Positions 11,562 through 42,016 of a DNA stretch of 64,000 bases are shown here, one piece after another (position 1 is the stretch's first letter; each line of letters starts with the position of its first letter). Origin of the DNA: Pseudomonadota bacterium. Its GTDB lineage: Bacteria; Myxococcota_A; Bradymonadia; UBA4248. The notes below the pieces were generated by a model, which made no database searches, was not told the origin of the DNA, and worked only from the letters and a program-made list of their open reading frames with translations. Made by a program: the position numbers and the translations under genes. The DNA is taken from contig JAFRYG010000024.1 of the NCBI GenBank assembly GCA_017441205.1, positions 6,046 through 70,045 of the forward strand. Direction: 5' to 3'.

Positions 11562-14500
11562 ATGTTACGAAAGCTATCCCTGTCCATTGCCCTGTTCCTC
11601 GCAATTTGTTCCCCAGCCCAGGCCGAAACGCCTGCATCGGGGCAAGCTCAAAAACTCGCCGCGCTCATGCAGCAAACGGCGATTGCGGATTCCCTGGGTG
11701 CAGAAGATGCCAATCTGAGTGAAATCGTTAAAATTCAGTCAGATGATCCCATACTTTCGCGCTATCTGGAATGGTCGAGACAATACTATTCACAAAAGTA
11801 TCAGGTTAGTCCCAAGGATTCGCCGCTGCCCGGAGCGGTAACCCAATTTTTCGTCTCATTTCCTTTTGCCAGCACCTCGATGTTTGATTTCGCACGTCCC
11901 TTTTCGCCCGAATCGGGATATGACACATCGAAATCACAGGAAGGTGCCATGTATCCGGCACTAAACTGGATGAAATACGAATCCACCGGAAACTACAGTG
12001 CTGTCCTTGCCCAGGAATGCATTGACAATTCCGGCTTTGTTACGATGTTCCTTGCGACTCGCATACGCATCGATGAGGCCAAGGGAATCGATGCATATCT
12101 CGAAATTCCATCATCCACGCCGGTCGTTGCCTGGATGAACGGCAAAAGAGTACTCGAAAACATCGAAAAAGGCCCGACACCTGCCCCAAAATACGGAGAA
12201 CGATGGCCAATACACCTCAATGACGGAGAAAACATCCTCACCATTAAGGTTGCAGCCCTCGAAACACAGCCGGCATTCTACGTTTTTCTGACGGATCGCA
12301 AGACGGGCAATCCGATTCCCTTCAAAATCGATTTGGAGCAACCCATCGTTTCAGGGCCGCTGGATGACTCGCGCCCGGAAACATCCGAACCGTCCGTTCT
12401 ATTATCCCTGTATAAGGATCAAAGCAATTCACCTGCCCTGCGATCCTATATCGCACGCGAAATCTTTTCCGAAGAAGAAGCCGATCGCCTCGTCAACGAT
12501 CTGCTGTTTACCGATGTTGAAGCGACATCCAATCTGCCGCCCGACGATTTGGAACTGGCAATTCTGGCACTCAACAACCATCCCAAAAGTCTGCAGTTTA
12601 TGGTCCGGGCAATGAAAAAACATGCCAATGATCCGCGCATGCAGCTTCTCTATGCCCGCCAGATGATTCTGGCATCCGAAGATCAGGGGGATACCGGCGT
12701 CCGCTTTGTCGATGAATGGCCGCAAATCCACCAAAACCTCGTTTCGATGACCGCACCCGTCGTCAATGGCATCTCCTACGAACCTCTCAGACGCAAACTC
12801 ATTGCTCTGTCGGAACTCAATGCCCAGCAGACGCTGACTGCCATCCGCGAAATTTCAAAAGATCCGCAAAAATGCCCCGAATGCGAACGATATCTGATTC
12901 CAAATATGATGGGATCATTGACGGATCGTTACCTGGTTGCAGAACATCTCGACTATCTCGAAAAACAGCTCGAGCATGACAGGAATTCATCGGCGCTGCT
13001 CGTCGATATCATGGACGGAAAACTCCGTCGTGCCGTGCTGCGCAATGATGAGTCGGAATTGGCCAAAACACTCGCCGAAATCCAGCAGTCGAGCGAATCA
13101 TTTTTCAAAATTCATCCTTACGACGACTATTTCTGGTCATTCTGGCTCAACGTGGTTTCTGAATATGGACTGGATTCCGAGCGCGTTAAAGCCTCACCGG
13201 AACTTGCGCAAAAGCTCTCTGATGCCGGTTTTTCGGCAGATGCAGACACATGGTTCATGCTTTACCTGTCCCAGAGAGTCAATGATCCCAAACGATGGCA
13301 AAGATATGCAGAGCATTGCCTGAAAACGGGACAAACCGCCGAAGTCATATCTGCCTACGAGATGGCCTCACGCCTTCAGCCCCAGGATACATCACTTTCG
13401 GAACGTTCCGAAATGATGAAAAAGATCGCAAACCATCCGGAAACAGAAAAAGCTGCAGCCAGTTCGGAACCGTCGTTCGAAACGCCGTATATCATCCGCG
13501 AAATTCCTGATAACCGGGATGCCAATGCAACAGGCCTGGTTTCACTGCTCGACAATCGGGTCGTCAAAATCCACGAAAATGGCCTTTCTTCCACGTACAA
13601 CCAAATCGCATTTCAAATTCTCGACGAACAGGGGCTCAAGGCTGTCCGTATGATGCCGATCAACTACTCGCCGACGGACGAAAAGCTGGAAATCATCTCG
13701 GTCACAACGATGAAAAAAGACGGTTCTGTACGTCGTCTGTACGAAACGACCGAGTACAATACTGCCGACGAATCCGTAAAAATGTACTACGATCAGCGGC
13801 AAGTCGTCATTGAAGTTCCTGGACTCGCCGTTGGCGATCGCATCGAATACCAATTCAGGCGAACGCAGATTCAGCGAGCAGCGAGCAGTGTTTCATTTTT
13901 CAGCGACATCTATCAGCTTCAATCCTGGTTCAATCGCCAATGGTCCAGATACACGATCATTGCTCCGGAATCGACGAATGTCACTCTGCTTCGCCACACG
14001 CCGGCGGGGAATCCGACTCAGGTCGGCACGAGCAAAAAGGAAGGCGGCAATATTGTCATTACCTACGAAGAAAAGGATACCCCAAGACTTCTTGCCGAAC
14101 CCCAGATGCCTGGTGCCACAGAAGTCATGCCATTCCTGCTCGTATCGACATTCAGGACCTGGCAGGAACTGACTGACTGGTTTATCGATCTGGCCTCCCC
14201 GCAATGGAAAGCGGATGACGCGATTCGCGCCAAAGTTCAGGAGCTGACCAAAGGCATCGATGATCCCTTCGAAAAGCTCAAACGAATTCATAGTTTTGTC
14301 GTCAAGTCGACGCGATACGTTGCGCTCGAATTCGGCATTCATGGGCATAAACCCTATCCGGCAGCTCAGATTTTTGAACGCCGGTTCGGCGACTGCAAGG
14401 ACAAAGCCAGTCTTCTCAAGGTCATGCTCAGGGAAGCCGGCATTGAGTCAGAATTTGTTTTGGCCAGAACGCGCCAGAATGGCGATGTTACCCTCGATCT

Positions 14501-15323
14501 TCCCAATCCCTATCTGTTTGATCATGCCATACTGTACGTACCGCAGTTTGATCTGTTCCTGGATGGAACGGCGGAATTCAGCGGTACAAGGGAACTTCCT
14601 GCGATGGATCAGGATGCACAGGTACTCGTTCTGAGTGACGCATCCACCTACAAACTGCAAAAGATACCGGTTTCCAAACCATCCGACAATCACGTCCAGC
14701 AAACCTGGGAATTTGATCTGACCCAGGGACAGGATGTCTCATTTGCCTACCATGCAGACTATAGCGGTTACATGGCCCCGAGTTATCGTGAGCGCTACCA
14801 GATTGATTCGCTGCAGCGCGAGCGTCTCGAATCAGAAATTGCCTATAATATCCACGGTTCACAGCTTAAATCCTTCGAATTTTCAGATCTTTCCGATCTC
14901 GAAAAAGACGTTTCACTCAACTATACGGCAACGACGACGCTGAGTGACATCGTCAAGTCGGACGGCAGTCTGTGGCTGGTTACCCCCATGGTCATGCCGA
15001 GCCAGATGGCCAAGAGCTTTGCCTCATCCGCCAAGCGCCGAACACCCATTGTTCAGGCCGTCCCGTTTGTCATCGATAAAACGATTACGCTCATCCTGCC
15101 GCCCGGAGCCAAAGTGACATTGCCGGAAGCAGTCAGTGAATCCGGAAAGTTTGGTTCCTACACGATCACCTCGTCCCTTGCGGATAACCGTCTGACGACC
15201 CAGATTCAGCTTACGCTGACCCAGGTCAAGATTCAGCCCGACGACTATCCTGGGTACCTGGACTTTTTACAAAGCTATGATCGCCGTCTGAACACTCAGT
15301 TCCAAATCAATCTGTCCAAATAA
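11562..15323 (+). CDS. Large secreted protein (~1,250 aa) with a C-proximal transglutaminase-like catalytic domain (DUF3857/transglutaminase-type architecture).
   Basis: Signal peptide MLRKLSLSIALFLAICSPAQA. The catalytic triad context 'RRFGDCKDKASLLKVMLREAGIESEFVLART...LFDHAILYVPQFDLFLDGT' (Cys, His, Asp) can be read directly. The DUF name is from memory of domain architectures. Confidence 0.6.
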   Translation: MLRKLSLSIALFLAICSPAQAETPASGQAQKLAALMQQTAIADSLGAEDANLSEIVKIQSDDPILSRYLEWSRQYYSQKYQVSPKDSPLPGAVTQFFVSFPFASTSMFDFARPFSPESGYDTSKSQEGAMYPALNWMKYESTGNYSAVLAQECIDNSGFVTMFLATRIRIDEAKGIDAYLEIPSSTPVVAWMNGKRVLENIEKGPTPAPKYGERWPIHLNDGENILTIKVAALETQPAFYVFLTDRKTGNPIPFKIDLEQPIVSGPLDDSRPETSEPSVLLSLYKDQSNSPALRSYIAREIFSEEEADRLVNDLLFTDVEATSNLPPDDLELAILALNNHPKSLQFMVRAMKKHANDPRMQLLYARQMILASEDQGDTGVRFVDEWPQIHQNLVSMTAPVVNGISYEPLRRKLIALSELNAQQTLTAIREISKDPQKCPECERYLIPNMMGSLTDRYLVAEHLDYLEKQLEHDRNSSALLVDIMDGKLRRAVLRNDESELAKTLAEIQQSSESFFKIHPYDDYFWSFWLNVVSEYGLDSERVKASPELAQKLSDAGFSADADTWFMLYLSQRVNDPKRWQRYAEHCLKTGQTAEVISAYEMASRLQPQDTSLSERSEMMKKIANHPETEKAAASSEPSFETPYIIREIPDNRDANATGLVSLLDNRVVKIHENGLSSTYNQIAFQILDEQGLKAVRMMPINYSPTDEKLEIISVTTMKKDGSVRRLYETTEYNTADESVKMYYDQRQVVIEVPGLAVGDRIEYQFRRTQIQRAASSVSFFSDIYQLQSWFNRQWSRYTIIAPESTNVTLLRHTPAGNPTQVGTSKKEGGNIVITYEEKDTPRLLAEPQMPGATEVMPFLLVSTFRTWQELTDWFIDLASPQWKADDAIRAKVQELTKGIDDPFEKLKRIHSFVVKSTRYVALEFGIHGHKPYPAAQIFERRFGDCKDKASLLKVMLREAGIESEFVLARTRQNGDVTLDLPNPYLFDHAILYVPQFDLFLDGTAEFSGTRELPAMDQDAQVLVLSDASTYKLQKIPVSKPSDNHVQQTWEFDLTQGQDVSFAYHADYSGYMAPSYRERYQIDSLQRERLESEIAYNIHGSQLKSFEFSDLSDLEKDVSLNYTATTTLSDIVKSDGSLWLVTPMVMPSQMAKSFASSAKRRTPIVQAVPFVIDKTITLILPPGAKVTLPEAVSESGKFGSYTITSSLADNRLTTQIQLTLTQVKIQPDDYPGYLDFLQSYDRRLNTQFQINLSK

Positions 15324-15356
15324 ATTCTGTTCCCAACTCCAACATAAGCTGAAGAT

Positions 15357-18300
15357 ATGCGCAAAATAGCCTTTGTATTGGCCCTTTCCCTTACTGTTCT
15401 GTCATACGGCTGTGCGACGACATCCCAGTCACGCCAGGGCACATGGTCTGCATGGCCCTCGCAAGCCTCGATGTCCGATACGCTGAAATCCTCGATTGCC
15501 GACATGAAATCGGGCGATCTGCAGGCTGCCGATGCCAGATTGACGCCTGACGTCAGATCCGCCGATCCTGCAGCCAGTTACCTGCATGCAGAGATTACTG
15601 CCCTGCGCGGACAGACGGCTGCTGCCGCAGATTTGATGACGGATTTTATCGCACAAAACCCACAGAATCCGCTCGTTTCTGCAGCGCTCGTCAGGCTTCT
15701 CTCCCTGAGCAATACCTCCAGTTCTCCGCTCAACTGGGAAAAGGTATCCCAGCTGAAAGTCAACGATCCCTATGCCGCTGCGCGCCTCGTCATTCTTCAA
15801 AACCGGGCACTCAGGGAAACCCATCATCCCGACCTGAAGCATCCGACAGCCCTGCCCCTGGTAAAATGGCAATGGGTTGGACCATTTACCCCTTATATTT
15901 ACACGGGATTCGAATCTGAACAGCCATTTGACGGCGATCCCATCCTCGGCGAAAGCTACGAATTGGACGGCAAACGACTCGAACGCTTTCAATACCCTGC
16001 GGACAGTTCAACGCCCATGGCATCCTCCATGTCGGGCGTTTATGCCGCAGAAACCCGCATTCAGGTCGATCGTGAAATGCCGGTTCAAATCATCGTTCAG
16101 GGCGCGCAGCTCTATACGATATTTGTCGACGGCAATCCCGTACTCTCGCGCGATTTCTCGCAATTCGGCAAGGAATCCGTACTTGCTTCGCGCTTCGTTC
16201 TTCCCCAGGGAGAACATATCATTCGACTGCGTCTTGGATTGAATGCAGCCACCGCTTCCAATCACCACGTTGCCCTTTGGATTGCGCCGTCGGATTTCAC
16301 CAGCAAAACAGACGATCTCAGTGCCCTCAGGGAACTTGACGATTTGTCCGGCAAATTGCCGGATAAAACAGAAATCAAAAAACTCGAACGCATCGACCTG
16401 ACGCATATTCTCGGCAGCACGACAGAACCAGCTGCTGATGAAACCATGCGTTCGTGGATCGGTGCATCCATGGCAGTTCTGACCGGAAGACCCCAAATCG
16501 CCGAAACCCTGATTCAGGGAGCTCTTCAGAAAGATCCCGACGATATCATTGCCCAGTATTGGAAAGCCATGCGATATCGGGCAGACGCCGATCTTGATCC
16601 TTCGCTCAGATCAGAAAATACCATCCATATTCTCAAGGATATTGCAAAAAAAGCGCCGCAGCTCGCAGCGGTTCAGCAGCTGCTCATTTCGGAATTTCTC
16701 AAACAGCAGCAGCCCAAACAGGCACTCGAAATCTGGGAAAAACATAAGAATACCCTGCCCGATACTGCAGAAATGAATTCCCTGCTGAGCGAGCTGTCCA
16801 AAACACTCGAATGGTATGACATTTCGAAGGAATATGCCCTCAAAGCCATGCAGAAGGCACCGAATTCCTGTTCGCTCGCAGTCAATGCATTTAACATCCA
16901 GACGCAGCGCAATGCCTATACATCGTTCGAGCAGCTGTCTCCGCGAATCCAGTCCTGTCCATCCATCGTTCGCGCCTATTCAAAGCTGGAAGGCAATGAT
17001 GCCGCTGAAAAATCGCGCTGGTTCAATGCGCTCGATCAGCTCGCCAAAGACAATCCCAACGACAGCTCAATCCGCCTGGAAGCCATTCTGGCCAAATCTC
17101 CGACGGCCCCAGAAAGTGCTGCGCGCGAATTTCTCGAACTCCTCGATGCCGTGTCAAAAGGCTATTATCCCAATATTTCGACAGAATCGGCGCTGGTATT
17201 GATAGATAATCTGCGCGCCGCCGGACACGAAAAGGAAGCCGAAAACGTTTTGGCAAAGATTCTCGAGCTCTATCCTGTCGCAGAAGTTTTCAGAAATATG
17301 GAATGGCAGCACCACCAGGATCGTCCTTTGAGTGAACTGCGCATTGACGGCATGAATACCATCAAAGAATATCTCGCACAGAACCGAGACGATGCCGGCA
17401 GCTCCGTCATGCTCCTGGATTATGCAGCCACCCGGATTTTCCCCACGGGTGCAAAACTGGGACTGACGCATCAGATTTCGCGCGTTCTGAGCAAAGAAGG
17501 CAAAAATGAGGTCGGCGAAATCTATCTTCCCTCCCACGCATCAGTTCTCAGAATCCGTACGATAAAAGATGGAACATTCGAAATCGTCGAACCGGAAACC
17601 ATCGATTTTAAAGATTCTGTCACTGCCCCCAACCTCGAAGTCGGCGACTATGTTGAAGTCGAATATCTGACATTCGAACCAGCGGCTTCGCGCTACATTC
17701 CCCGAGTTGCAACCGATACATTTTTCTATGGTTCCAACCAGAGCCCGCTCGTCCGCTCGGAGTATGTGTTTGAATACCCCAAAGACTGGCATGTCGAGAT
17801 CGTGGAATCCGGCCCCCGGAATCAGATTCAGCAATCCTGTGCACCGGTTGGCGAATTCATGCGTTGCTCGGCAAAACGAGAAAACATCCCGGTATTCATT
17901 CCTGAACCGCGTGCGGCCTCTCCTATCGATCTGATACCCAATATCCAGGTTTATTATCATTACGACTGGGATTACATCCGCCAGGGACTCCATGAATCCA
18001 TTACACGCCAAACGCGCGTAACCCCATACGTTCAGAGATTTTACGATAAACTTGCCGTTCCCGAAGGCGATTCGGTCTGGGAACATGCGAGAGCCATCTA
18101 CGATCAAGTCGTTGAAAGCATCGACGAAAGTGAAACGATGCGCACCAATGATGACGAAACCGCGACGAATTCCATCACGCGTGGAACCGGTTCGCGATTC
18201 ATTACCCTGAAATCGCTCTACGATATTGCCGACATTCCGAATTATTTTGCGCTCGTACACTCCATCCTGGCACCGGAAAACAGCGAACAGCTGCCTTCCA

Positions 18301-19130
18301 TGTACGAAAATGCCTATGTCACCCTGCTCGTCGTCGAAACCGAAAAGGGACCGGCATATCTTCAGCCGACAGAAGATTATATCCCCTTTGACTACTTATC
18401 GGCAGATCTTCAGGGACAGACGGTCATTCCCGTCGATCCCGCCTACGAAAGATTCATTTCGCGCCAGGAGAATCCGGAACTGCAGAGAGCAACGATCGCT
18501 ATTCAATACGAAATTTCTGAAGACGGCACAGCCAAAGCAAAATCGACTGAAGTCATGAGAGGCTCCCGGGCTCTCGTCATGCGCAACTTTCTCAATACGG
18601 TCAAAAACGATAATGACAAAGCCCAGCAGGTCGTTCAGAACAGCCTTGCCAATAACTATGGCCGCATCGAACTGACGCGCCTGGAGCACGAACAGCTCGA
18701 CGACAAGAATAAGCCCCTGACACTGCACTACGATTTCGATATCGCGAGTTTTGCCGCAGCATCAGATGGTAAGCTGGATATTATTTCGCGCATATTCGCA
18801 TATAATCTCGTCAATCAGTTTGCCCAGCTTCCGCCTTCCCAAAGGAAATATCCTGTACTCATCGATTCCGACATGCTTTCGGAACGAACGCTCACGTTCC
18901 ATGCTCCTGCCGGTTATACCTGGGATACGACGACACTGCAGGACATCAGTCTGGAGACAAAATTCGGCAAATTCAGCCGTCATACCCAACTCAACGCCGA
19001 GACCCTCGAAGTCAAAGAATCCATACAAATCCGTCCTCAGCGCATCCAGCTTGATCAGTATGCGGAATTCAGGGAATTCTGCCTCGCGGTGGATGAAGCC
19101 CAGAGAACTGTGATTTCGGCCAAAAAGTAG
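15357..19130 (+). CDS. Paralog of the preceding large protein: a lipoprotein of similar size and architecture whose equivalent triad positions appear substituted (likely inactive).
   Basis: Lipoprotein signal (LSYGCATTS). The segment 'RGTGSRFITLKSLYDIADIPNYFALVHS...YENAYVTLLV...YLQPT' aligns by eye to the active-site region of 11562..15323 with C>S, H>N and D>Q. Confidence 0.5.
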   Translation: MRKIAFVLALSLTVLSYGCATTSQSRQGTWSAWPSQASMSDTLKSSIADMKSGDLQAADARLTPDVRSADPAASYLHAEITALRGQTAAAADLMTDFIAQNPQNPLVSAALVRLLSLSNTSSSPLNWEKVSQLKVNDPYAAARLVILQNRALRETHHPDLKHPTALPLVKWQWVGPFTPYIYTGFESEQPFDGDPILGESYELDGKRLERFQYPADSSTPMASSMSGVYAAETRIQVDREMPVQIIVQGAQLYTIFVDGNPVLSRDFSQFGKESVLASRFVLPQGEHIIRLRLGLNAATASNHHVALWIAPSDFTSKTDDLSALRELDDLSGKLPDKTEIKKLERIDLTHILGSTTEPAADETMRSWIGASMAVLTGRPQIAETLIQGALQKDPDDIIAQYWKAMRYRADADLDPSLRSENTIHILKDIAKKAPQLAAVQQLLISEFLKQQQPKQALEIWEKHKNTLPDTAEMNSLLSELSKTLEWYDISKEYALKAMQKAPNSCSLAVNAFNIQTQRNAYTSFEQLSPRIQSCPSIVRAYSKLEGNDAAEKSRWFNALDQLAKDNPNDSSIRLEAILAKSPTAPESAAREFLELLDAVSKGYYPNISTESALVLIDNLRAAGHEKEAENVLAKILELYPVAEVFRNMEWQHHQDRPLSELRIDGMNTIKEYLAQNRDDAGSSVMLLDYAATRIFPTGAKLGLTHQISRVLSKEGKNEVGEIYLPSHASVLRIRTIKDGTFEIVEPETIDFKDSVTAPNLEVGDYVEVEYLTFEPAASRYIPRVATDTFFYGSNQSPLVRSEYVFEYPKDWHVEIVESGPRNQIQQSCAPVGEFMRCSAKRENIPVFIPEPRAASPIDLIPNIQVYYHYDWDYIRQGLHESITRQTRVTPYVQRFYDKLAVPEGDSVWEHARAIYDQVVESIDESETMRTNDDETATNSITRGTGSRFITLKSLYDIADIPNYFALVHSILAPENSEQLPSMYENAYVTLLVVETEKGPAYLQPTEDYIPFDYLSADLQGQTVIPVDPAYERFISRQENPELQRATIAIQYEISEDGTAKAKSTEVMRGSRALVMRNFLNTVKNDNDKAQQVVQNSLANNYGRIELTRLEHEQLDDKNKPLTLHYDFDIASFAAASDGKLDIISRIFAYNLVNQFAQLPPSQRKYPVLIDSDMLSERTLTFHAPAGYTWDTTTLQDISLETKFGKFSRHTQLNAETLEVKESIQIRPQRIQLDQYAEFREFCLAVDEAQRTVISAKK

Positions 19131-19273: not shown

Positions 19274-20602
19274 TTAAATTTTATTGACGCGCCCCATGAA
19301 GAGAGCGGTATTGGTATCGGTTTCCATCAGGAAGAACAAGAAGGGGTGATCGACGACAATTTCGATCGGATTCGAGGGAGGCGGAAGCATTGCCTTTGTC
19401 CGCATAACCACTGCGGTTGCGGCAGCAGCTTCGGCACCTTTTTCGTTCACATCGATGTAAGCTTTTTGAAGCACCTCGGAAATCATGAGTTCGTCGGAAT
19501 CAGACATGCGCGAGAAATCTGCATCGTGTGTAAAAGCCGTCGTCATGCCGAGAGAATTCAGCATCTGCCTGAGGGAAAGGCTCGTTTCGATGCGGAATTT
19601 CGGCATTTTCAGCTTCACCATGCGACTCGACATTGCTTCGCGCATTTTGCGAATCTCTTCTGCGGTCAAAGTCGCGGTAACCTTATTCAGGGCTTCGTCG
19701 ACATCGACGCCATCGGCAACTTTCGGCAGGATGACAAACAGCGAATAACCGCCGATGAATGACAAATCCACTGCGATAAAAGCTTCATTATCCAGATAGA
19801 CGCGATGCTTTTTGTTATGCTGCATCATATCGACCTGGATGACGCCGTCGTGCGTTTTAAAATCGGCCTTTTGCGTTGCCGATTCACTGAACGAATCAAA
19901 CCATGGGGCCTTAAAATAGATGGCATTGGTCAAAACGACGCGCGTCAGTGAGCTGAGAATACCCGGAGGCAGAATATCCTGGATTTTGCCCTGAGTGGAT
20001 TCTGCAACGTCAGCATTGATGGTTTTGCGGGCATTTTCCGTATCGCCGATGAAATCGAGCTGACGCGGCTTAACGTCGTAGGCTGCAGATACACGCTCCA
20101 TATAATCAGGCAAAAGATTGCTCGTTTTTTCAACCCAGATGCGATTGTCTATCGTGACCGTAACATTTTCGTCAGAGGCAGACTCAGCCATTGCCTTCTC
20201 GACATCTTTACCCATTTCGCTCAAATTCTTTGCATCCGGCAGCCCAAGAGCCTTTCTCATCTCGGAAATTGTGGTTCCGCATGCACCTTCGTAGACCATT
20301 CCCAAAGCTCTCTGTGCCGAGAAAGGAGAAACGACAGCCGAACCTTCCTGCATATTTCTGAGCATATTCAGACCGAAATTGTTATTGGCATCGCTCCATG
20401 CAGCCATTTCGATTGCCGCATCAGAACTCACGACACACTCTTTTGGGGCAGCTTTGGGAGCCGGAACGTTGGCATTATCGGAATTTTCCGCAGTCTGGTT
20501 CTCGGAAACAGCGGTTTCGACGTTTTCGGGAGTTTGCTTTTTGGAGCATCCCACGAGACACATTGCGGCAATGATACCTGTAATTATCAGAGATTTTTTC
20601 AT
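19274..20602 (-). CDS. Serpin-family lipoprotein (serpin 2) with a canonical inhibitory hinge.
   Basis: Start re-set to MKKSLIITGIIAAMCLVGCSKK (lipobox). The core 'VVSPFSAQRALGMVYEGACGTTISEM' and the hinge 'EKGAEAAAATAVVMRTKAML' match the inhibitory E-x-G-T/A-E-A-A-A-A-T consensus. C-terminal 'VDHPFLFFLMETDTNTALFMGRV'. Confidence 0.8.
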   Translation of the reverse strand: MKKSLIITGIIAAMCLVGCSKKQTPENVETAVSENQTAENSDNANVPAPKAAPKECVVSSDAAIEMAAWSDANNNFGLNMLRNMQEGSAVVSPFSAQRALGMVYEGACGTTISEMRKALGLPDAKNLSEMGKDVEKAMAESASDENVTVTIDNRIWVEKTSNLLPDYMERVSAAYDVKPRQLDFIGDTENARKTINADVAESTQGKIQDILPPGILSSLTRVVLTNAIYFKAPWFDSFSESATQKADFKTHDGVIQVDMMQHNKKHRVYLDNEAFIAVDLSFIGGYSLFVILPKVADGVDVDEALNKVTATLTAEEIRKMREAMSSRMVKLKMPKFRIETSLSLRQMLNSLGMTTAFTHDADFSRMSDSDELMISEVLQKAYIDVNEKGAEAAAATAVVMRTKAMLPPPSNPIEIVVDHPFLFFLMETDTNTALFMGRVNKI

Positions 20603-20907
20603 AACAATCCTGGAGCAACAATCAAACATCAAAACGAATGCCCGTTTCGAAATCATCCGTCCTGTAAATGGAAATCGTGGAACTGACAAAACCGGAAAAC
20701 CGGGATTCATCCGAATATCCGGAATTTCCGATCACTGTATGGTAATACTAACGATAAATGCGATGTTTTAGAAAGAAAAAATTGAGCAAACATCTTCCGG
20801 AATACGGTCTTTATACTTTACCCTAAAACGTGGATATAATATGATATAATCAGTTCGATATGCCAAAGACTGTCCTCCGCAAGGAAGGCGTGTCTTGAGT
20901 CTGCTCA

Positions 20908-22686
20908 TTGCAGATCAGCAAAATACGGGAAAGCAATATGCGTCTAAGAGAACTCAAAAACGGTGTTCAAATCTGTCCGGAAATCACACTTGATTCGCTG
21001 CTTTATACCCATAACAGCATTGCACTCTACCTGGCATCCGACACTGACAGTGGGCATACACTGGTTCATCTTTTGCCGGATATTGAGGATGCCTCCCTCG
21101 AAGTTCTGCAAAAAGTCGTTGAGTTCTATAAAGATAACCTCAAGCTCGAAACGCGCTGCGGTCGTTTTGAAGAGTTTTTATATTTTTCAGAGCCATTTCC
21201 ATTGGGTGAATACATGTTTGAGTGGCTTGAACGCCGGGAACGCGTAGCCCTTCCCGAAGCCCTCAAACGCATCATCTCTTTGCTCAAGATACTGCAGCAG
21301 GCGCACGAAAAGGACATTTACAATGGCCGCATTACGCCTCAGTCCGTTCTTCTTGAGCGTTCGGGAGTTGCCTTTGGTCTGAGAATGATGGGACTCGGCG
21401 TAGCCCAGGCTTTGCCCCCCTCGCTCAGATACGATATCGACTGGTTCGACTATACGTTCGACCTGGAAGGCATGAGCCCTGCTGCCGTTGATATCTATGG
21501 TATTGCCATCATTCTGATGGGATTGGTCAGCGGTGAATCCGGAATCGACAGCTTCGAAGCCACCGGTCTGCTGCCGCAATCCCTGCGCGGCGGCATTCTT
21601 CAACAGGCCATGGAACGCGCACTCGCACTCAGAATCGACGCATACCCAACCATCCTTGCGTTCAGCCTCGATCTCGAAGCTGCGCTGCTCGAAATTGACG
21701 ACCGTCAGGGCGAAGTCTACGTCGGCGACCTCGTCGGTTTTGAATCTGCCATAAAAAGCATCTCAAGTATTCATGAGGAAAAGCCCGAAAACTCAGGCGT
21801 CTGGAGTTCGATGTTCGAGACGCTCGAACAGAATGAACGCTCGAGCCTTTTGTGCTCCCTGACATCCCTGACCGCAATCCCTGCCCTCGGCCCCGAAGAT
21901 GACGATGATATTACCAAAGTAACCACATTGCCTCAGGCCCTCGTCGGCATGCAGCGTATCAAATCCGCACATCAGCACGAGGACGAATGCAAAACCGATA
22001 TCCTCGCAGCTCCAATGGCTCTGCAGGACGAGGTAGACAATTCATCCGCCGAGGCCGCAGAGGTAGACAATTCATCCGCCGAGGCCGCACCCGAGGAACA
22101 GGCACCTGCGCAGCCGGATAAACCCGAAGACAAATTCGCCAGTATCAAAAATCTCGAAGCCGAACTGCAGAGCGATGACGAGGAAGATGATGCTCCAACG
22201 CGCGTCATGATGCGTCCGAATTATGCCACCATCAGTTTTGGGCAAACCGGACAGGGCGTCAACTCTTCCATCGAAGAAGTCATTAAGAATTCTTCATCCG
22301 AACGGGCAACCGTCACGACCATGCTGGATCGCATCCAGCAGGCAACCGTTATCGAATTCGAGTGCGAACTCAAACACGACATCCAGTATGATCCCAATGA
22401 TCCTGTTGCATTTCCACCGGAAGACGAATCCCAGGACAGCCAGTCTGACGATTCACCGAATTCTTCTCTCGTCAGGAATGCAGCAGAAGCCAAGTCAAAA
22501 ACCAAAACCGGCAAATCACCAAATATCAATGCCCCGCAAAAAGCTGATGTCGTCGCCCACACATCCACGCACTTCAAGGCACCCAGCAAATTCAGCAAGG
22601 GCCAGAAGTTCCTCCTGATATTCCTCATCATCGTTGTCATTGCTCTGGGAATCGCGATGGCCATGCATTATTACCATTTAATATAA
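20908..22686 (+). CDS. C-terminally membrane-anchored pseudokinase (degenerate Hanks-type kinase fold).
   Basis: Kinase-like subdomains are present, but the catalytic loop reads 'NGRITPQSVLL' where HRDLKPENILL is expected (Asp lost) and DFG reads 'MGLG'. Subdomain IX-like 'DIYGIAIILMGLVSG'. Acidic repeat DNSSAEAAEV x2. C-terminal TM 'FLLIFLIIVVIALGIAMAM'. Confidence 0.45.
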   Translation: MQISKIRESNMRLRELKNGVQICPEITLDSLLYTHNSIALYLASDTDSGHTLVHLLPDIEDASLEVLQKVVEFYKDNLKLETRCGRFEEFLYFSEPFPLGEYMFEWLERRERVALPEALKRIISLLKILQQAHEKDIYNGRITPQSVLLERSGVAFGLRMMGLGVAQALPPSLRYDIDWFDYTFDLEGMSPAAVDIYGIAIILMGLVSGESGIDSFEATGLLPQSLRGGILQQAMERALALRIDAYPTILAFSLDLEAALLEIDDRQGEVYVGDLVGFESAIKSISSIHEEKPENSGVWSSMFETLEQNERSSLLCSLTSLTAIPALGPEDDDDITKVTTLPQALVGMQRIKSAHQHEDECKTDILAAPMALQDEVDNSSAEAAEVDNSSAEAAPEEQAPAQPDKPEDKFASIKNLEAELQSDDEEDDAPTRVMMRPNYATISFGQTGQGVNSSIEEVIKNSSSERATVTTMLDRIQQATVIEFECELKHDIQYDPNDPVAFPPEDESQDSQSDDSPNSSLVRNAAEAKSKTKTGKSPNINAPQKADVVAHTSTHFKAPSKFSKGQKFLLIFLIIVVIALGIAMAMHYYHLI

Positions 22687-27407: not shown

Positions 27408-29396
27408 TCAGCCCATCCTGCCCAGACCATCCAGAACGACGCGCATCGAAGCCGGTCTGTCATAGGGATTCGGCGAAAGGCAGGATTCGACCAGCTGGGC
27501 TATCGAAACCGGAACCATGGGATTAATCTGACGAATCGGTTCAAAAATGCCCGACATCTGAGCCGTATAAATTGCAACTGCATTCGAACCATTATAAGGC
27601 AGACGCTGAGTAAAACACTCATAACATACGACGCCGAACGAAAACACATCCGCCTGAACCGTAATCGGCTCACCACGGGACTGTTCCGGAGCCATATAAA
27701 ATGGCGTCCCAATCCCCTGGCCAGGAATATTTGCACACGGCATATCCATCGTACTCGCGATGCCGAAGTCCATCAGATACGGATGAAACGAATCCGCTTC
27801 TATCATGATATTCGCGGGTTTTAAATCGCGATGGATGACGCCCCTGTCATGTGCAGCCACAAGTGCTTCTGCAACCTGTATCAACAGCCTCAGGCTCATC
27901 ATCAGCGGCAGCGGTGATTCCTTCAGATGCTGACTCAGATTCTTGCCGTTGATGTAGCGCATCGTAAAGAAATACAATCCTTCGAGCTGCTCCAGATGAT
28001 AAGCAGGAAGAATATAGGCATGCTCCAGATCCCGCGTAATTTTCAATTCGCGTTTAAAACGCTGAAGCCAGGCCGCATCCGAAACAAGCTCCGGACGAAG
28101 CACCTTGAGCGCAAGAATCTCCGTCAGAATCGTATCCAGAACCTTATAGACCGTCCCGGTTCCGCCAGACCCCAGCTCATCCAGAATCTGATAGCGCGAA
28201 CGCGCCAGAACCTCTGCCGGAGAAATCGTCACAGCAGTCCTCAGACCCGAATTGATCGTCCAGAAACTGTTGGAACTGCGATGGACAACGCGCGTTTCAA
28301 AGCCTTCAATGGCCGGAGATGTCAGCGTGTCTTCAAAAACGATATCCCCGCCCGACGACCGCTCAACCGGCGTTTCTGATGATTCCGGCCCTCTGGCATG
28401 CAGCGATCTGTTGCGGTCACTCGATGGCACTTCCACTGAAATACAGGCTTCATCTCCCGTAATGAGATTGATGACGTCACTCCGAAATTCCACACTCTCC
28501 GTTGTCAGCACCGGCGGAAAATCATCAAAATGCCCCCGCATGATATCCATGCGGACTTCCGGCGGCTGATAAGTCCCAAACGCCAGGATAATCTCCTCAA
28601 GTGCCTGCGCAAGCTGACGATAGGATCCAAAACGCTGCTGCGGACGCTCCGCAAGTGTATGGTGGAAAAACTCTATCGCAATCTTCAGTGACTCACCGGG
28701 AATATTCGACCGGTTCAGCACATCCATCATCCCCATCCAGCGAGGTTCCCATTCATCCGGCTGAAATTCACTTGTAATGCATTGATAAAGCAGAGCACCA
28801 ACCGAATAGACATCGCTTTCAACGCTCACTGCTTCGTGGCGTCTCCATTCGGGCGTGTCGAACTTTTCATTCATTTCCGAGTCAAAGCGGAATCGACGAC
28901 GCATCTCAGCCTCGACGAATCCCTTCACATAGACTTCACCCGTCTGCGACATCAAAATATACGGCGGTATCAGCGAAAAATGAGTCAGCTGCCTCTGATA
29001 GGCTTCGTCCAGAACATTGACGGCATCTCTGAGCACCGACGCAAAAAATGCCGGACTCAGTGTATTGCCGCCCTTGCCGGCCAGCTGCGACATCTCACCA
29101 ATCGACAGATGCGCCCACTCATAGGGATAAACCGCATACGCCCCCTGCGAACGGCTCAGCCCAAGTTCGCAGAGCGGAATAAGCCCCGGCATCTGAATAT
29201 GCGAATAACGGCGACAGGCATCCTGGAAACAAAGCCGAAGCTCCGCAGTCCCGCACAATTCCTTGCTCAACGCAATGATATTGTACCAACGACTGCTATC
29301 CTCCTCGGCTGTCGCAAGATAGTACTCATAGTAACGCGGCGAATCCAGCGTCTCTCGCACAACGTAACCAGGAAATTGTCCAACCCGTTGAAACAT
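27408..29396 (-). CDS. Tandem kinase protein: an N-terminal pseudokinase domain plus a C-terminal active Hanks-type Ser/Thr protein kinase.
   Basis: The C-terminal domain carries GSGGTGTVYK, ALK, HRDLKPANIMI, DFGIAS and TPFYMAPE. The N-terminal domain keeps the kinase fold (subdomain IX 'SDVYSVGALLYQCIT') but has HFSLIPPYIL for HRDLKPENIL and KGF for DFG, and lacks the Gly loop. Confidence 0.75.
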   Translation of the reverse strand: MFQRVGQFPGYVVRETLDSPRYYEYYLATAEEDSSRWYNIIALSKELCGTAELRLCFQDACRRYSHIQMPGLIPLCELGLSRSQGAYAVYPYEWAHLSIGEMSQLAGKGGNTLSPAFFASVLRDAVNVLDEAYQRQLTHFSLIPPYILMSQTGEVYVKGFVEAEMRRRFRFDSEMNEKFDTPEWRRHEAVSVESDVYSVGALLYQCITSEFQPDEWEPRWMGMMDVLNRSNIPGESLKIAIEFFHHTLAERPQQRFGSYRQLAQALEEIILAFGTYQPPEVRMDIMRGHFDDFPPVLTTESVEFRSDVINLITGDEACISVEVPSSDRNRSLHARGPESSETPVERSSGGDIVFEDTLTSPAIEGFETRVVHRSSNSFWTINSGLRTAVTISPAEVLARSRYQILDELGSGGTGTVYKVLDTILTEILALKVLRPELVSDAAWLQRFKRELKITRDLEHAYILPAYHLEQLEGLYFFTMRYINGKNLSQHLKESPLPLMMSLRLLIQVAEALVAAHDRGVIHRDLKPANIMIEADSFHPYLMDFGIASTMDMPCANIPGQGIGTPFYMAPEQSRGEPITVQADVFSFGVVCYECFTQRLPYNGSNAVAIYTAQMSGIFEPIRQINPMVPVSIAQLVESCLSPNPYDRPASMRVVLDGLGRMG

Positions 29397-39158: not shown

Positions 39159-40535
39159 ATGAAACTATCAACACTCATGCTCAGCTTCGCAGCGGCAATC
39201 TGTCTGGCGATGGGTTCACCTGCTGCCGCCGAGGAGGTCAATATGGCTCAGCAAACACAGGAAAATGTCAAAATTCCGTTCGAACAGTTCACGCTAGATA
39301 ACGGTCTGCGCGTATTTTTGCTGCGCGACAACTCCCTTCCCATCATCACCGTCAATCTGTGGTTCGACGTCGGCTCGAAGGACGAGCAGCCGGGCAGAAC
39401 CGGATTTGCGCATCTGTTCGAGCATCTGATGTTCATGGGAACAGAAAAAGTCCCCAACATCGATATTCTGCTCGAGAGCGGCGGCGGTTCGAACAATGCA
39501 TCCACGCGCGAGGATGTGACGAATTATTACACGGTAGCCCCCGAAAATATGCTCGAAACCGTGTTGTTCATTGAGGCCGACCGCTTTGCGCATCTGGCGG
39601 ATGCGATGACCCAGGAAAAACTCGATAAACAGCGGGATGTCGTGCTGAACGAACGCAGACAATCCTACGAAAATCAGCCCTATGGCAAACTGTGGCTCGA
39701 TTTGCCCACCGTCCTCTATCCCGAGGGCCATCCCTATGCCCATCCGGTCATCGGTTCCGTTCAGGATATCAAAAACGCAACGATCCAGGATGTCACTGAC
39801 TTTTTCAATACTTACTACGTCCCGGCCAATGCCTCGCTCGTCGTCGGAGGCGATTTCGATTCCGAACGAGCCAAGTCGCTCATCACCAAATATTTCGGTG
39901 CCATTCCCAAACGTCCAAAACCTGTCACCGCTGCAATTCCTCAGGTCACAGCACCGGTCAAAACCAGACATACCATTCAGGACGACGTCCAGGTGCCCAA
40001 ACTTACCCTTATCTGGCACTCCCCGGCGTTCATGGCCAAAGGCGATGCCGAACTCGATATTCTCTCCAATATTCTTTGCAAAGGCCAGACTTCGCGCCTC
40101 ATCAACCGCCTCGTCTACGAAAAGCAGCTGGCATCCAACGTTTCGTGCGGCCAGATCTCGGGACTTGCATCCGTGTTCATGATCGATGCCATGCCGCTGC
40201 CCGGCGTTTCGGTCGAAACGCTCGAAGCCGAAATTCTGGATGAACTCTCAAAGATTACCAGGGACGGCGTTTCCGAAGAGGAATTTGCCCGCACCAAAAA
40301 CGGCATCGAAACCGCATTTGTCAAGCAGCTCCAGTCCATCGGTTCGAGGGCCGACAGCTTCAACAGCTACGCATTCTACACCCACGATACGGACTTTCCC
40401 GCAGGTGATCTCAGACGTTACCGCCAGGCAACGACCGCGACGCTCATGGAAGTCATCAAACTCATCTTCAGCGATGATTCCCGCAGAAGCGCCCTCATTG
40501 TTACCCCCCGCACACCATCCGGAGAACAGCAATGA
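39159..40535 (+). CDS. Secreted M16-family zinc peptidase, active subunit (HxxEH).
   Basis: Signal peptide present. The inverted zinc motif 'HLFEHLMFMGTEK' and downstream Glu-containing region are typical of pitrilysin-family enzymes. Confidence 0.8.
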   Translation: MKLSTLMLSFAAAICLAMGSPAAAEEVNMAQQTQENVKIPFEQFTLDNGLRVFLLRDNSLPIITVNLWFDVGSKDEQPGRTGFAHLFEHLMFMGTEKVPNIDILLESGGGSNNASTREDVTNYYTVAPENMLETVLFIEADRFAHLADAMTQEKLDKQRDVVLNERRQSYENQPYGKLWLDLPTVLYPEGHPYAHPVIGSVQDIKNATIQDVTDFFNTYYVPANASLVVGGDFDSERAKSLITKYFGAIPKRPKPVTAAIPQVTAPVKTRHTIQDDVQVPKLTLIWHSPAFMAKGDAELDILSNILCKGQTSRLINRLVYEKQLASNVSCGQISGLASVFMIDAMPLPGVSVETLEAEILDELSKITRDGVSEEEFARTKNGIETAFVKQLQSIGSRADSFNSYAFYTHDTDFPAGDLRRYRQATTATLMEVIKLIFSDDSRRSALIVTPRTPSGEQQ

Positions 40536-42016
40536 AACCAGCCCATTGTCTCACTCTGATAATTGCAGCCGCATCGCTGTCGCTGAATGCATGTCAGTCC
40601 ACTTCTTCCGGCGAACAAACGCCCGTTTCCGCAGTGCAAAACACCATGAATACCGATTTCAGTCTTCCAGAAATTCCCCCCGCAAAACTCTTCCAGCATG
40701 CAACACCGGAAATCTTCAAACTCGATAACGGCATGGATGTCTGGTACGTACACAACCCGCTCATTCCGCTCATGAGCCTGAAAGTCGTATTCACCCAGGG
40801 CGCATCCATCGATCCTGCCGACAAATCCGGTCGTTCCTCCATGACCGCCATCCTGCTCAAGGAAGGTGCGAACGGAAAATCCGCGCAGCAGATATCCAAC
40901 GAAATTGAGTTCATCGGTGCCACGCTTTCCCCGGCCATCACTCAGGATGCCGCATCCATCACGCTCCAGTCCATGACCCAGTTCTTCGAACAGGGACTCG
41001 ATATTCTCGCCGATATCTGGCTCAAACCATCTTTTGAACAGAGCGCATTCGACCGCATCCAAAAAATCGTACTCAATGGCCTCAAACAACGCGAAGATGC
41101 GCCGACCGCCATCGCAAAGCTCGCCTCTAATCGGGACTATTTCGGCGAGGACCATCCCTACGCCAGATCCGCCGACGGCTACATCGACACCATCTCCGGC
41201 ATGTCCCTCAAAGACATTCAGGAAGCCTATCAGCAGATATTCACACCATCGCGCGCAGCATTTATCGCAGTCGGCAACATTCCGGCCGATGAACTCAAAA
41301 AAATGCTCAACAGCCGGTTCGGTTCCCTGAATATCACGCCGGTTGCCGACGAAATGCCCAAGCCAGAAGTCCCCGCGCCCGTCCGACGTCTCACCATCGT
41401 CGACAAACCCAACGCCCCGCAGACGGTCATCCGCATCTATCAGCCAGCCATCGTAGCCACCTCGCTCAAAACCCTCCCCTGGCAATTCATCAACATCCCG
41501 TTCGGCGGCAGCTTCACGAGCAGGCTCATGCAGAATATCCGCGAGGACAAAGGCTATTCCTACGGCGCAAATGCCGTCGTCGCGTCGCAGAAATTCGCAG
41601 GCGTCCTGCTCTCGACCTCGCAGGTCGCCACCGAAGTCACTGGCGCAGCGCTCAAGGAATTCCTCTATGAACTCGATCGCCTCCCCAAAGGAGACTTCAC
41701 GCAGGAAGAATTCGAACGCGCCCGCGAAACCTGGAAATCCGAACTCGTTCAGTCGTTCGAAACACAATCCGGAGTACTCGCAACCATCTCCAGCCTGTAT
41801 CTCAATCAAAAGCCCGTCGATGCCATCAATGCCTTCGCTCGAAGCCTCGACAGCTTTACGCTCGAACAGTTCAACGAAATCGCACGCGAATTCCCAACCA
41901 TCGATCAGATCAGCATCACGCTGGTCGGCGACAAAAACACCATCCTTGAACAAATTAAGGATATGGCTCTTCCGCAACCGACCTTCAGGGATCTCGAAGG
42001 CAAAATCATTCCGTAG
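40532..42016 (+). CDS. M16-family peptidase, non-catalytic partner subunit (lacks HxxEH).
   Basis: Overlaps the upstream gene by 4 nt. M16 fold-like with signal peptide, but no HxxEH motif. Confidence 0.7.
   Translation: MKPAHCLTLIIAAASLSLNACQSTSSGEQTPVSAVQNTMNTDFSLPEIPPAKLFQHATPEIFKLDNGMDVWYVHNPLIPLMSLKVVFTQGASIDPADKSGRSSMTAILLKEGANGKSAQQISNEIEFIGATLSPAITQDAASITLQSMTQFFEQGLDILADIWLKPSFEQSAFDRIQKIVLNGLKQREDAPTAIAKLASNRDYFGEDHPYARSADGYIDTISGMSLKDIQEAYQQIFTPSRAAFIAVGNIPADELKKMLNSRFGSLNITPVADEMPKPEVPAPVRRLTIVDKPNAPQTVIRIYQPAIVATSLKTLPWQFINIPFGGSFTSRLMQNIREDKGYSYGANAVVASQKFAGVLLSTSQVATEVTGAALKEFLYELDRLPKGDFTQEEFERARETWKSELVQSFETQSGVLATISSLYLNQKPVDAINAFARSLDSFTLEQFNEIAREFPTIDQISITLVGDKNTILEQIKDMALPQPTFRDLEGKIIP

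Follow-up and report, generated by a model that had tools for sequence, protein, structure and literature searches.

Proteins that join the Pfam domains DUF3857 and DUF3858 to a transglutaminase-like core are common in soil and gut bacteria, and to our knowledge none has a known function; the literature searched holds only incidental mentions of them. Of what is already known, the nearest is 3KD4 (BDI_1141 of Parabacteroides distasonis), the structural-genomics structure behind Pfam DUF3857 and DUF3858, which is annotated as a 'putative protease'. Among the bacterial transglutaminase-like cysteine proteases (BTLCPs), LapG is a small (approximately 200 residues), single-domain, calcium-dependent protease whose substrate is LapA and whose regulator is LapD. 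In eukaryotes, transglutaminase-fold pseudoenzymes are known to serve as scaffolds, as do EPB42 (erythrocyte protein 4.2), XPC/Rad4 and menin (PMC10318531). Here we describe two adjacent genes, A and B, in a 64,000-nucleotide stretch of DNA (hereafter the window) from a Pseudomonadota bacterium (GTDB lineage Bacteria; Myxococcota_A; Bradymonadia; UBA4248; NCBI GenBank assembly GCA_017441205.1, contig JAFRYG010000024.1, positions 6,046 to 70,045 of the forward strand). Protein A keeps an intact Cys-His-Asp triad in a transglutaminase-like core, whereas B, its full-length paralog, keeps the fold and has lost the triad, and this division is found at loci of two phyla.

Gene A (11562-15323, plus strand) encodes, by open reading frame (ORF) analysis and Pfam, an exported transglutaminase-fold protein of 1253 residues, and gene B (15357-19130, plus strand) a paralog of the same architecture with 1257 residues. 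The original prediction, made from the letters of the DNA, had described tandem paralogs of ~1,270 residues; adjacency and paralogy stand, and the lengths are corrected to ~1,255. The triad that it had proposed for A is indeed intact: Cys945 lies in GDCKDKA (codon 14394-14396), His988 in FDHAILY (codon 14523-14525) and Asp1001 in FLDGT (codon 14562-14564), all on the plus strand, and the three residues are invariant in 21 A orthologues and in all 84 A-type modules of the family analysed below. Protein A scores 42.5 bits against Pfam PF01841 (Transglut_core; cut-off 23, E = 8.8e-11), as expected of clan CA, the transglutaminase-like/papain-like group. Triad placement in both proteins was judged from the secondary-structure positions of predicted models. 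In the AlphaFold model of the C-terminal module of A (predicted local distance difference test score, pLDDT, 91.6), Cys945 stands at the N-terminus of a helix (945-958), His988 opens a strand (988-993) and Asp1001 follows another (998-1000), which in this predicted structure is the canonical transglutaminase-type arrangement.

Protein B gives no match to Transglut_core in Pfam, and BLASTP aligns A and B only where DUF3857 and DUF3858 lie, at ~22% identity. Profiles built from the two families (21 A and 7 B orthologues) align with hhalign over ~1,100 columns (probability 99.9%, E = 2.5e-32), and the duplication therefore spanned the whole gene. When cores taken from related loci were compared alone (84 A-type against 49 B-type), they still aligned over 122 columns (98.8%, E = 7.6e-17). 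A and B are thus homologous over their full length, catalytic region included, as both profile alignment and structure model agree. The transglutaminase core fold is kept in B: helix 944-957, which begins T-G-S-R, is the equivalent in the model of the Cys helix of A (C-terminal module pLDDT 83.7, from an input alignment of 9 sequences and with low confidence for residues 270-290 of the modelled fragment).

It had been predicted that all three triad positions were substituted in B. This holds for His and Asp; the Cys position, however, is deleted rather than substituted, as part of a 3-residue gap that falls at D-C-K or C-K-D in all alignments. The three motifs noticed by eye are present, namely GSRFITL (945-951), YENAYVT (983-989; 18303-18323, plus strand, from sequence and model) and YLQPT, and Asp1001 of A pairs with Gln1003 of B (in YLQPT; 18363-18365, plus strand) in every alignment. 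The by-eye partner of His988, Asn985, is 2-3 residues off, since the pairing varies with the register: full-length hhalign gives Tyr987, MAFFT and core hhalign give Val988. A triad retained elsewhere in B was also looked for, and none was found in the core or nearby; B has no His in residues 969-1110 and no Cys in residues 838-1241, which excludes a relocated triad in the core.

A scan of 185,579 species genomes for the A family yielded 80 loci. They lie in Myxococcota (Bradymonadales, Polyangiales, Nannocystales, Haliangiales and Myxococcaceae) and in Acidobacteriota (Terriglobales, Candidatus Angelobacter, Holophagae and Thermoanaerobaculia). ORFs at these loci were sorted into A-type and B-type with hidden Markov models (HMMs) of the two C-terminal modules. 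The division into enzyme and pseudoenzyme paralogs suspected from the window is family-wide: against the complete triads of the A-types, the 3-residue deletion is shared by 49 of 49 B-type modules, no Cys occurring at that site in any of them. The His column is variable among B-types, and the Asp column keeps Asp in about half of them. A neighbor-joining tree (Poisson distances) separates A and B as a clean bipartition with no mixed nearest neighbours, which means that duplication and inactivation occurred once, ahead of the divergence of these lineages or of any exchange between them; on this sequence evidence A and B are the products of one ancient whole-gene duplication.

The two genes also stay together. 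Among the 64 A-type genes with at least 3.9 kb of downstream sequence, to which the count was limited, 49 are followed directly 3' and on the same strand by a B-type gene, and the A-then-B order persists amid unrelated neighbours both in close orthologues and in a relative at 22% identity. The start of B overlaps the stop of A by 4 nucleotides at 31 of 44 junctions, and 34 of 44 leave no gap; 4-nucleotide overlaps of this kind are the usual signature of translational coupling. In an all-against-all BLAST of the flanking ORFs of the ~80 loci, no third conserved gene was found beside the pair across lineages, synteny being lineage-specific only, and the flanking-ORF clusters scanned at A-B loci contained no informative Pfam domains. 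One metagenome-assembled genome, CAKZKQ01, has two separate A-B pairs on different contigs (L008 and L021), so that the cassette can exist in more than one copy.

Domain by domain, selection acts differently on the two proteins (mean pairwise identity over 46 paired loci). The DUF3857 domain is about equally conserved in A and B (0.34 among A, 0.35 among B), whereas the transglutaminase core reaches 0.57 among A and only 0.25 among B, and the DUF3858 region 0.30 and 0.25; A and B of one locus share ~0.20 identity. The core is therefore the most conserved domain of A and among the least conserved of B, where it evolves fastest together with DUF3858. By these identities, catalytic constraint is gone from the core of B, while purifying selection clearly acts on the protein as a whole, a pattern that fits a pseudoenzyme keeping a non-catalytic role, not a decaying gene.

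Both proteins carry export leaders, as anticipated. A begins with a predicted type I (Sec) signal peptide, read by eye from the sequence (11562-11624, plus strand), in which MLRKLSLSIALFLAICSPAQA is followed by the cleavage site, after AQA, and then by ETP. B begins with a lipoprotein-like leader, MRKIAFVLALSLTVLSYGC (15357-15413, plus strand), whose lipobox-like Cys19 falls, in the alignment with orthologues, on their canonical lipobox Cys. Across the family, A-types have ordinary type I signal peptides; B-types have lipoboxes in Myxococcota and ordinary signal peptides in Acidobacteriota.

The pair resembles known enzyme-pseudoenzyme heteromers in that paralogous active and inactive subunits are encoded together, and we think it somewhat probable that the two proteins form a heteromer in the cell envelope in which A performs the catalysis and B, itself non-catalytic, serves as scaffold, anchor or regulator. 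A and B would be co-expressed as a two-gene cassette and both exported. A, soluble and either periplasmic or secreted, would use its intact Cys-His-Asp site of the papain/transglutaminase type on an envelope protein substrate, as a cysteine protease or as a transamidase/deamidase. B, which keeps every domain and the transglutaminase fold with the nucleophile position deleted, would be co-translated and bind A or its substrate in its non-catalytic role. In Myxococcota, the window included, an N-terminal lipid anchor would tie B, and with it the A-B assembly, to the membrane, so that the heteromer may be the unit that functions in the envelope.

Several observations weigh against this scheme. 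At fifteen A-type loci, B is missing from the surrounding 6 kb (they include L016, L024, L028, L029, L031, L033, L036, L046, L066 and L079); B is thus not indispensable everywhere, and A can apparently function with no B beside it, provided that B has not moved to another place in the genomes concerned. Fourteen of the fifteen are mutual nearest relatives, the Myxococcus, Pyxidicoccus, Corallococcus and Archangium group, and by their sequence relationships probably represent one loss or one relocation of B; the other, L030 (Terriglobia), is probably an independent loss, in which B is absent and the flanking genes of its paired relatives are kept. In the window itself A and B are 33 nucleotides apart, where most other lineages have the 4-nucleotide overlap. 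The B-types of Acidobacteriota lack a lipobox, so that membrane anchoring is not a universal role of B. The literature searched contains no characterised homologue, and nothing points to a substrate. Finally, a physical association of A with B is something that we infer from conserved adjacency and overlapping stop and start codons only. Among the loci without B, L028 (BNCN01000002.1) bears the title 'Comamonas sp. KCTC 72670', but at 95% identity its A-type module matches the one of Myxococcus sp. Y35 (L029), so that a wrong label or a myxobacterial origin of the assembly is probable.

The same absences bear on a different explanation, according to which A and B are independent, subfunctionalised paralogs: B would be a stand-alone non-catalytic binder, such as a surface receptor or adhesin built of TPR, DUF3857 and DUF3858, that makes no contact with A, and adjacency would only reflect their past tandem duplication and common regulation. 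The absence of B beside A throughout one clade and in a single Terriglobia genome agrees with it, as do the flanking domains of B, which are as conserved as those of A, and the sole solved relative, 3KD4, which is a single Cys-less protein of a Bacteroidetes species. Yet adjacency, order and strand are kept over two phyla at ~20-30% identity, and 70% of the junctions are 4-nucleotide overlaps; since the genes on either side have been completely replaced, linkage exceeds what such a history would predict. We regard this explanation as rather unlikely, though it is the main rival of the heteromer.

B might instead still be an enzyme, with another nucleophile or mechanism, for instance Ser946 of its G-S-R motif or residues from another domain. 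The motif G945-S946-R947 (18189-18197, plus strand) occupies the helix N-terminus opposite the G-D-C-K-D-K of A, which places a Ser beside the deleted Cys of the window B. A HMMER scan of 1.84 billion cluster representatives (clusters at 50% identity) with the C-terminal module of B gave at least 263 protein matches with E <= 1e-30. Of these, the top 150 are all B-type (B profile score above A profile score) and mostly ~1,250 residues long, and at the old Cys site these 150 mostly read G-x-R (GSR 47, GNR 40, GDR 16, GER 15 and GHR 8). So strong a conservation of G-x-R at the helix N-terminus indicates that selection still acts on the former active-site pocket, and the Asp kept in the Asp column by about half of the B-types would also suit an enzyme. 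However, the x of G-x-R varies (Ser, Asn, Asp, Glu, His), so that the B-types have no conserved nucleophile; the His column is likewise not conserved, the window B being without His around it, and the core belongs to the fastest-evolving part of the protein. A cryptic activity of B is for these reasons quite improbable. One of the 150 representatives reads G-C-R, with a Cys beside the deletion site, possibly a reversion or a chance substitution.

That B is a functionless, decaying duplicate, a pseudogene in the making, as loss of the triad and a core evolving faster than that of A might suggest, is hardly credible and effectively refuted by conservation, since intact B-type ORFs of ~1,200-1,300 residues occur at 49 loci in two phyla, the B module recurs in the at least 263 clusters found by the scan, and B-types retain export signals and conserved motifs of their own.

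Returning to the reading in which A is the catalytic subunit of a heteromer, we can only tentatively carry it further. The cassette may be an unrecognised heterodimeric envelope machine of Myxococcota and Acidobacteriota, in which the dead paralog positions and gates A, the G-x-R pocket binds a substrate or partner, and the complex cross-links or processes surface or matrix proteins; we would call this possible but doubtful. If true, it would be the first bacterial complex of a transglutaminase-fold enzyme with a pseudoenzyme, and DUF3857 and DUF3858 would gain a function.

The remaining features of the two genes, all on the plus strand, are as follows. The reading frame of gene A is open from 11445, and the Met at 11562 was taken as the start because orthologue N-termini and the signal peptide favour it. 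A beta-rich N-terminal domain of A (residues ~90-260; 11829-12341) has no Pfam match and carries the motifs W-x-NG-x-R-V and G-E-N-I-L-x-I-K, which are kept in both A and B and may be akin to those of galactose-binding-like jelly rolls. It is followed by a helical region with weak TPR matches (residues ~270-640; 12369-13481), the DUF3857 beta domain (residues 673-841; 13578-14084; Pfam E = 1.1e-21, also in the model), the transglutaminase-like core (residues 890-1010; 14229-14591), which is supported by Pfam Transglut_core at 890-974, the model and the alignments, and a C-terminal DUF3858-like domain (14592-15320; weak Pfam match, E = 0.012, and model). With DUF3857 N-terminal and DUF3858 C-terminal of the core, this is the module order of 3KD4. 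The 33-nucleotide spacer between A and B (15324-15356) holds no terminator-like hairpin in a promoter and terminator scan, in which matches at the pair were at chance level.

In B, Pfam finds TPR matches and places DUF3857 and DUF3858 slightly under their cut-offs. The DUF3857-like beta domain (sub-threshold in Pfam) covers residues 705-818 (17469-17810), the degenerate transglutaminase-fold core, delimited from alignments and model, residues 885-1012 (18009-18392), and the DUF3858 domain, just under the Pfam cut-off, residues 1161-1247 (18837-19097). NCBIfam gave no family match for A or for B. The PEP-CTERM TPR protein PrsT (TIGR02917) was considered for B and rejected, the score of 27 bits against an equivalog cut-off of 312 reflecting a generic TPR likeness.

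Elsewhere in the window, a serpin with a lipoprotein-like leader (MCLVGC; 19274-20710, minus strand; Pfam E = 1e-99) is convergent with gene B. It was examined as a partner of the pair and set aside: it does not lie beside the pair at other loci and is probably unrelated. Just downstream of it is an ORF of 592 residues with no Pfam match (20908-22686, plus strand), and a Ser/Thr protein kinase of 662 residues follows at 27408-29396 (minus strand). Kinases adjoin the A-B pair in two other contigs; such genes are usual in the genomes of Myxococcota, and no link specific to the pair was seen. The window contains a second active/inactive tandem, of M16 peptidases, at 39159-40535 and 40532-42016 (both plus strand), which overlap by 4 nucleotides. 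A signal peptide and the zinc motif HLFEH mark the first; the second lacks HxxEH and begins with a lipoprotein-like leader (LSLNAC). The tandem thus has the layout of a soluble active member and a lipoprotein inactive member, as A and B do.

How, then, does the pair compare with described systems? Direct PDB sequence searches with A or B returned nothing relevant, and 3KD4 was reached by family profiles only; the model of A nevertheless matches 3KD4 over its full length with a template modelling (TM) score of 0.85, and the three-domain module is the same as in A and B. At ~505 residues, 3KD4 is without the beta-rich domain and TPR half that form the 650-residue N-terminal half of A and B, and it was not seen here as a member of a pair. 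Its Cys helix (residues ~270-300) reads YGTPLEIAQLL against FGDCKDKASLL in A, with Pro at the Cys position, which makes the protease annotation doubtful. It is thus Cys-less by substitution with Pro and without the 3-residue deletion, and in this it differs from B. In fuller form, 3KD4 has YGTPLEIAQLLNVMLNAAGIP where active relatives have G-D-C-K-D-K-A-S-L-L.

Compared with the BTLCPs (PF01841, for example PDB 3ISR, and LapG), A and B are six times the size and contain additional domains. An assignment of A and B to LapG-type BTLCPs was rejected, as neither Pfam nor NCBIfam gave a LapG-family match and the similarity is at fold level only; among the genes scanned in the window, no LapD- or LapA-like neighbour was seen. 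Eukaryotic EPB42, XPC/Rad4 and menin are related to B by the common fold only and, unlike B, are neither encoded beside an active paralog nor exported bacterial proteins. In the literature searched, whose coverage left out most subscription journals, we found no account of a bacterial enzyme/pseudoenzyme pair of the DUF3857 type.

No long-standing open question hinges on the A-B pair. Its interest is that an active/dead pair of some 2 x 1,250 residues, with the signature of translational coupling and present in two phyla, leads to a model, concrete and open to test, in which a catalytic subunit works with a scaffold. The G-x-R motif together with the 3-residue deletion provides a family-wide marker of the dead subunit, the lineages without B offer natural controls, and some 260 or more clusters labelled 'hypothetical' or 'TPR protein' become a defined pseudoenzyme family. 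The nearest analogue in layout is provided by the M16B peptidase heterodimers, in which an active HxxEH subunit is combined with an inactive one; these are zinc metalloproteases whose fold and chemistry are unrelated to those of A and B, and the likeness is one of analogy. Seen beside them, the A-B pair adds to the familiar enzyme-plus-pseudoenzyme theme a variant that is widely conserved and had not been described before.

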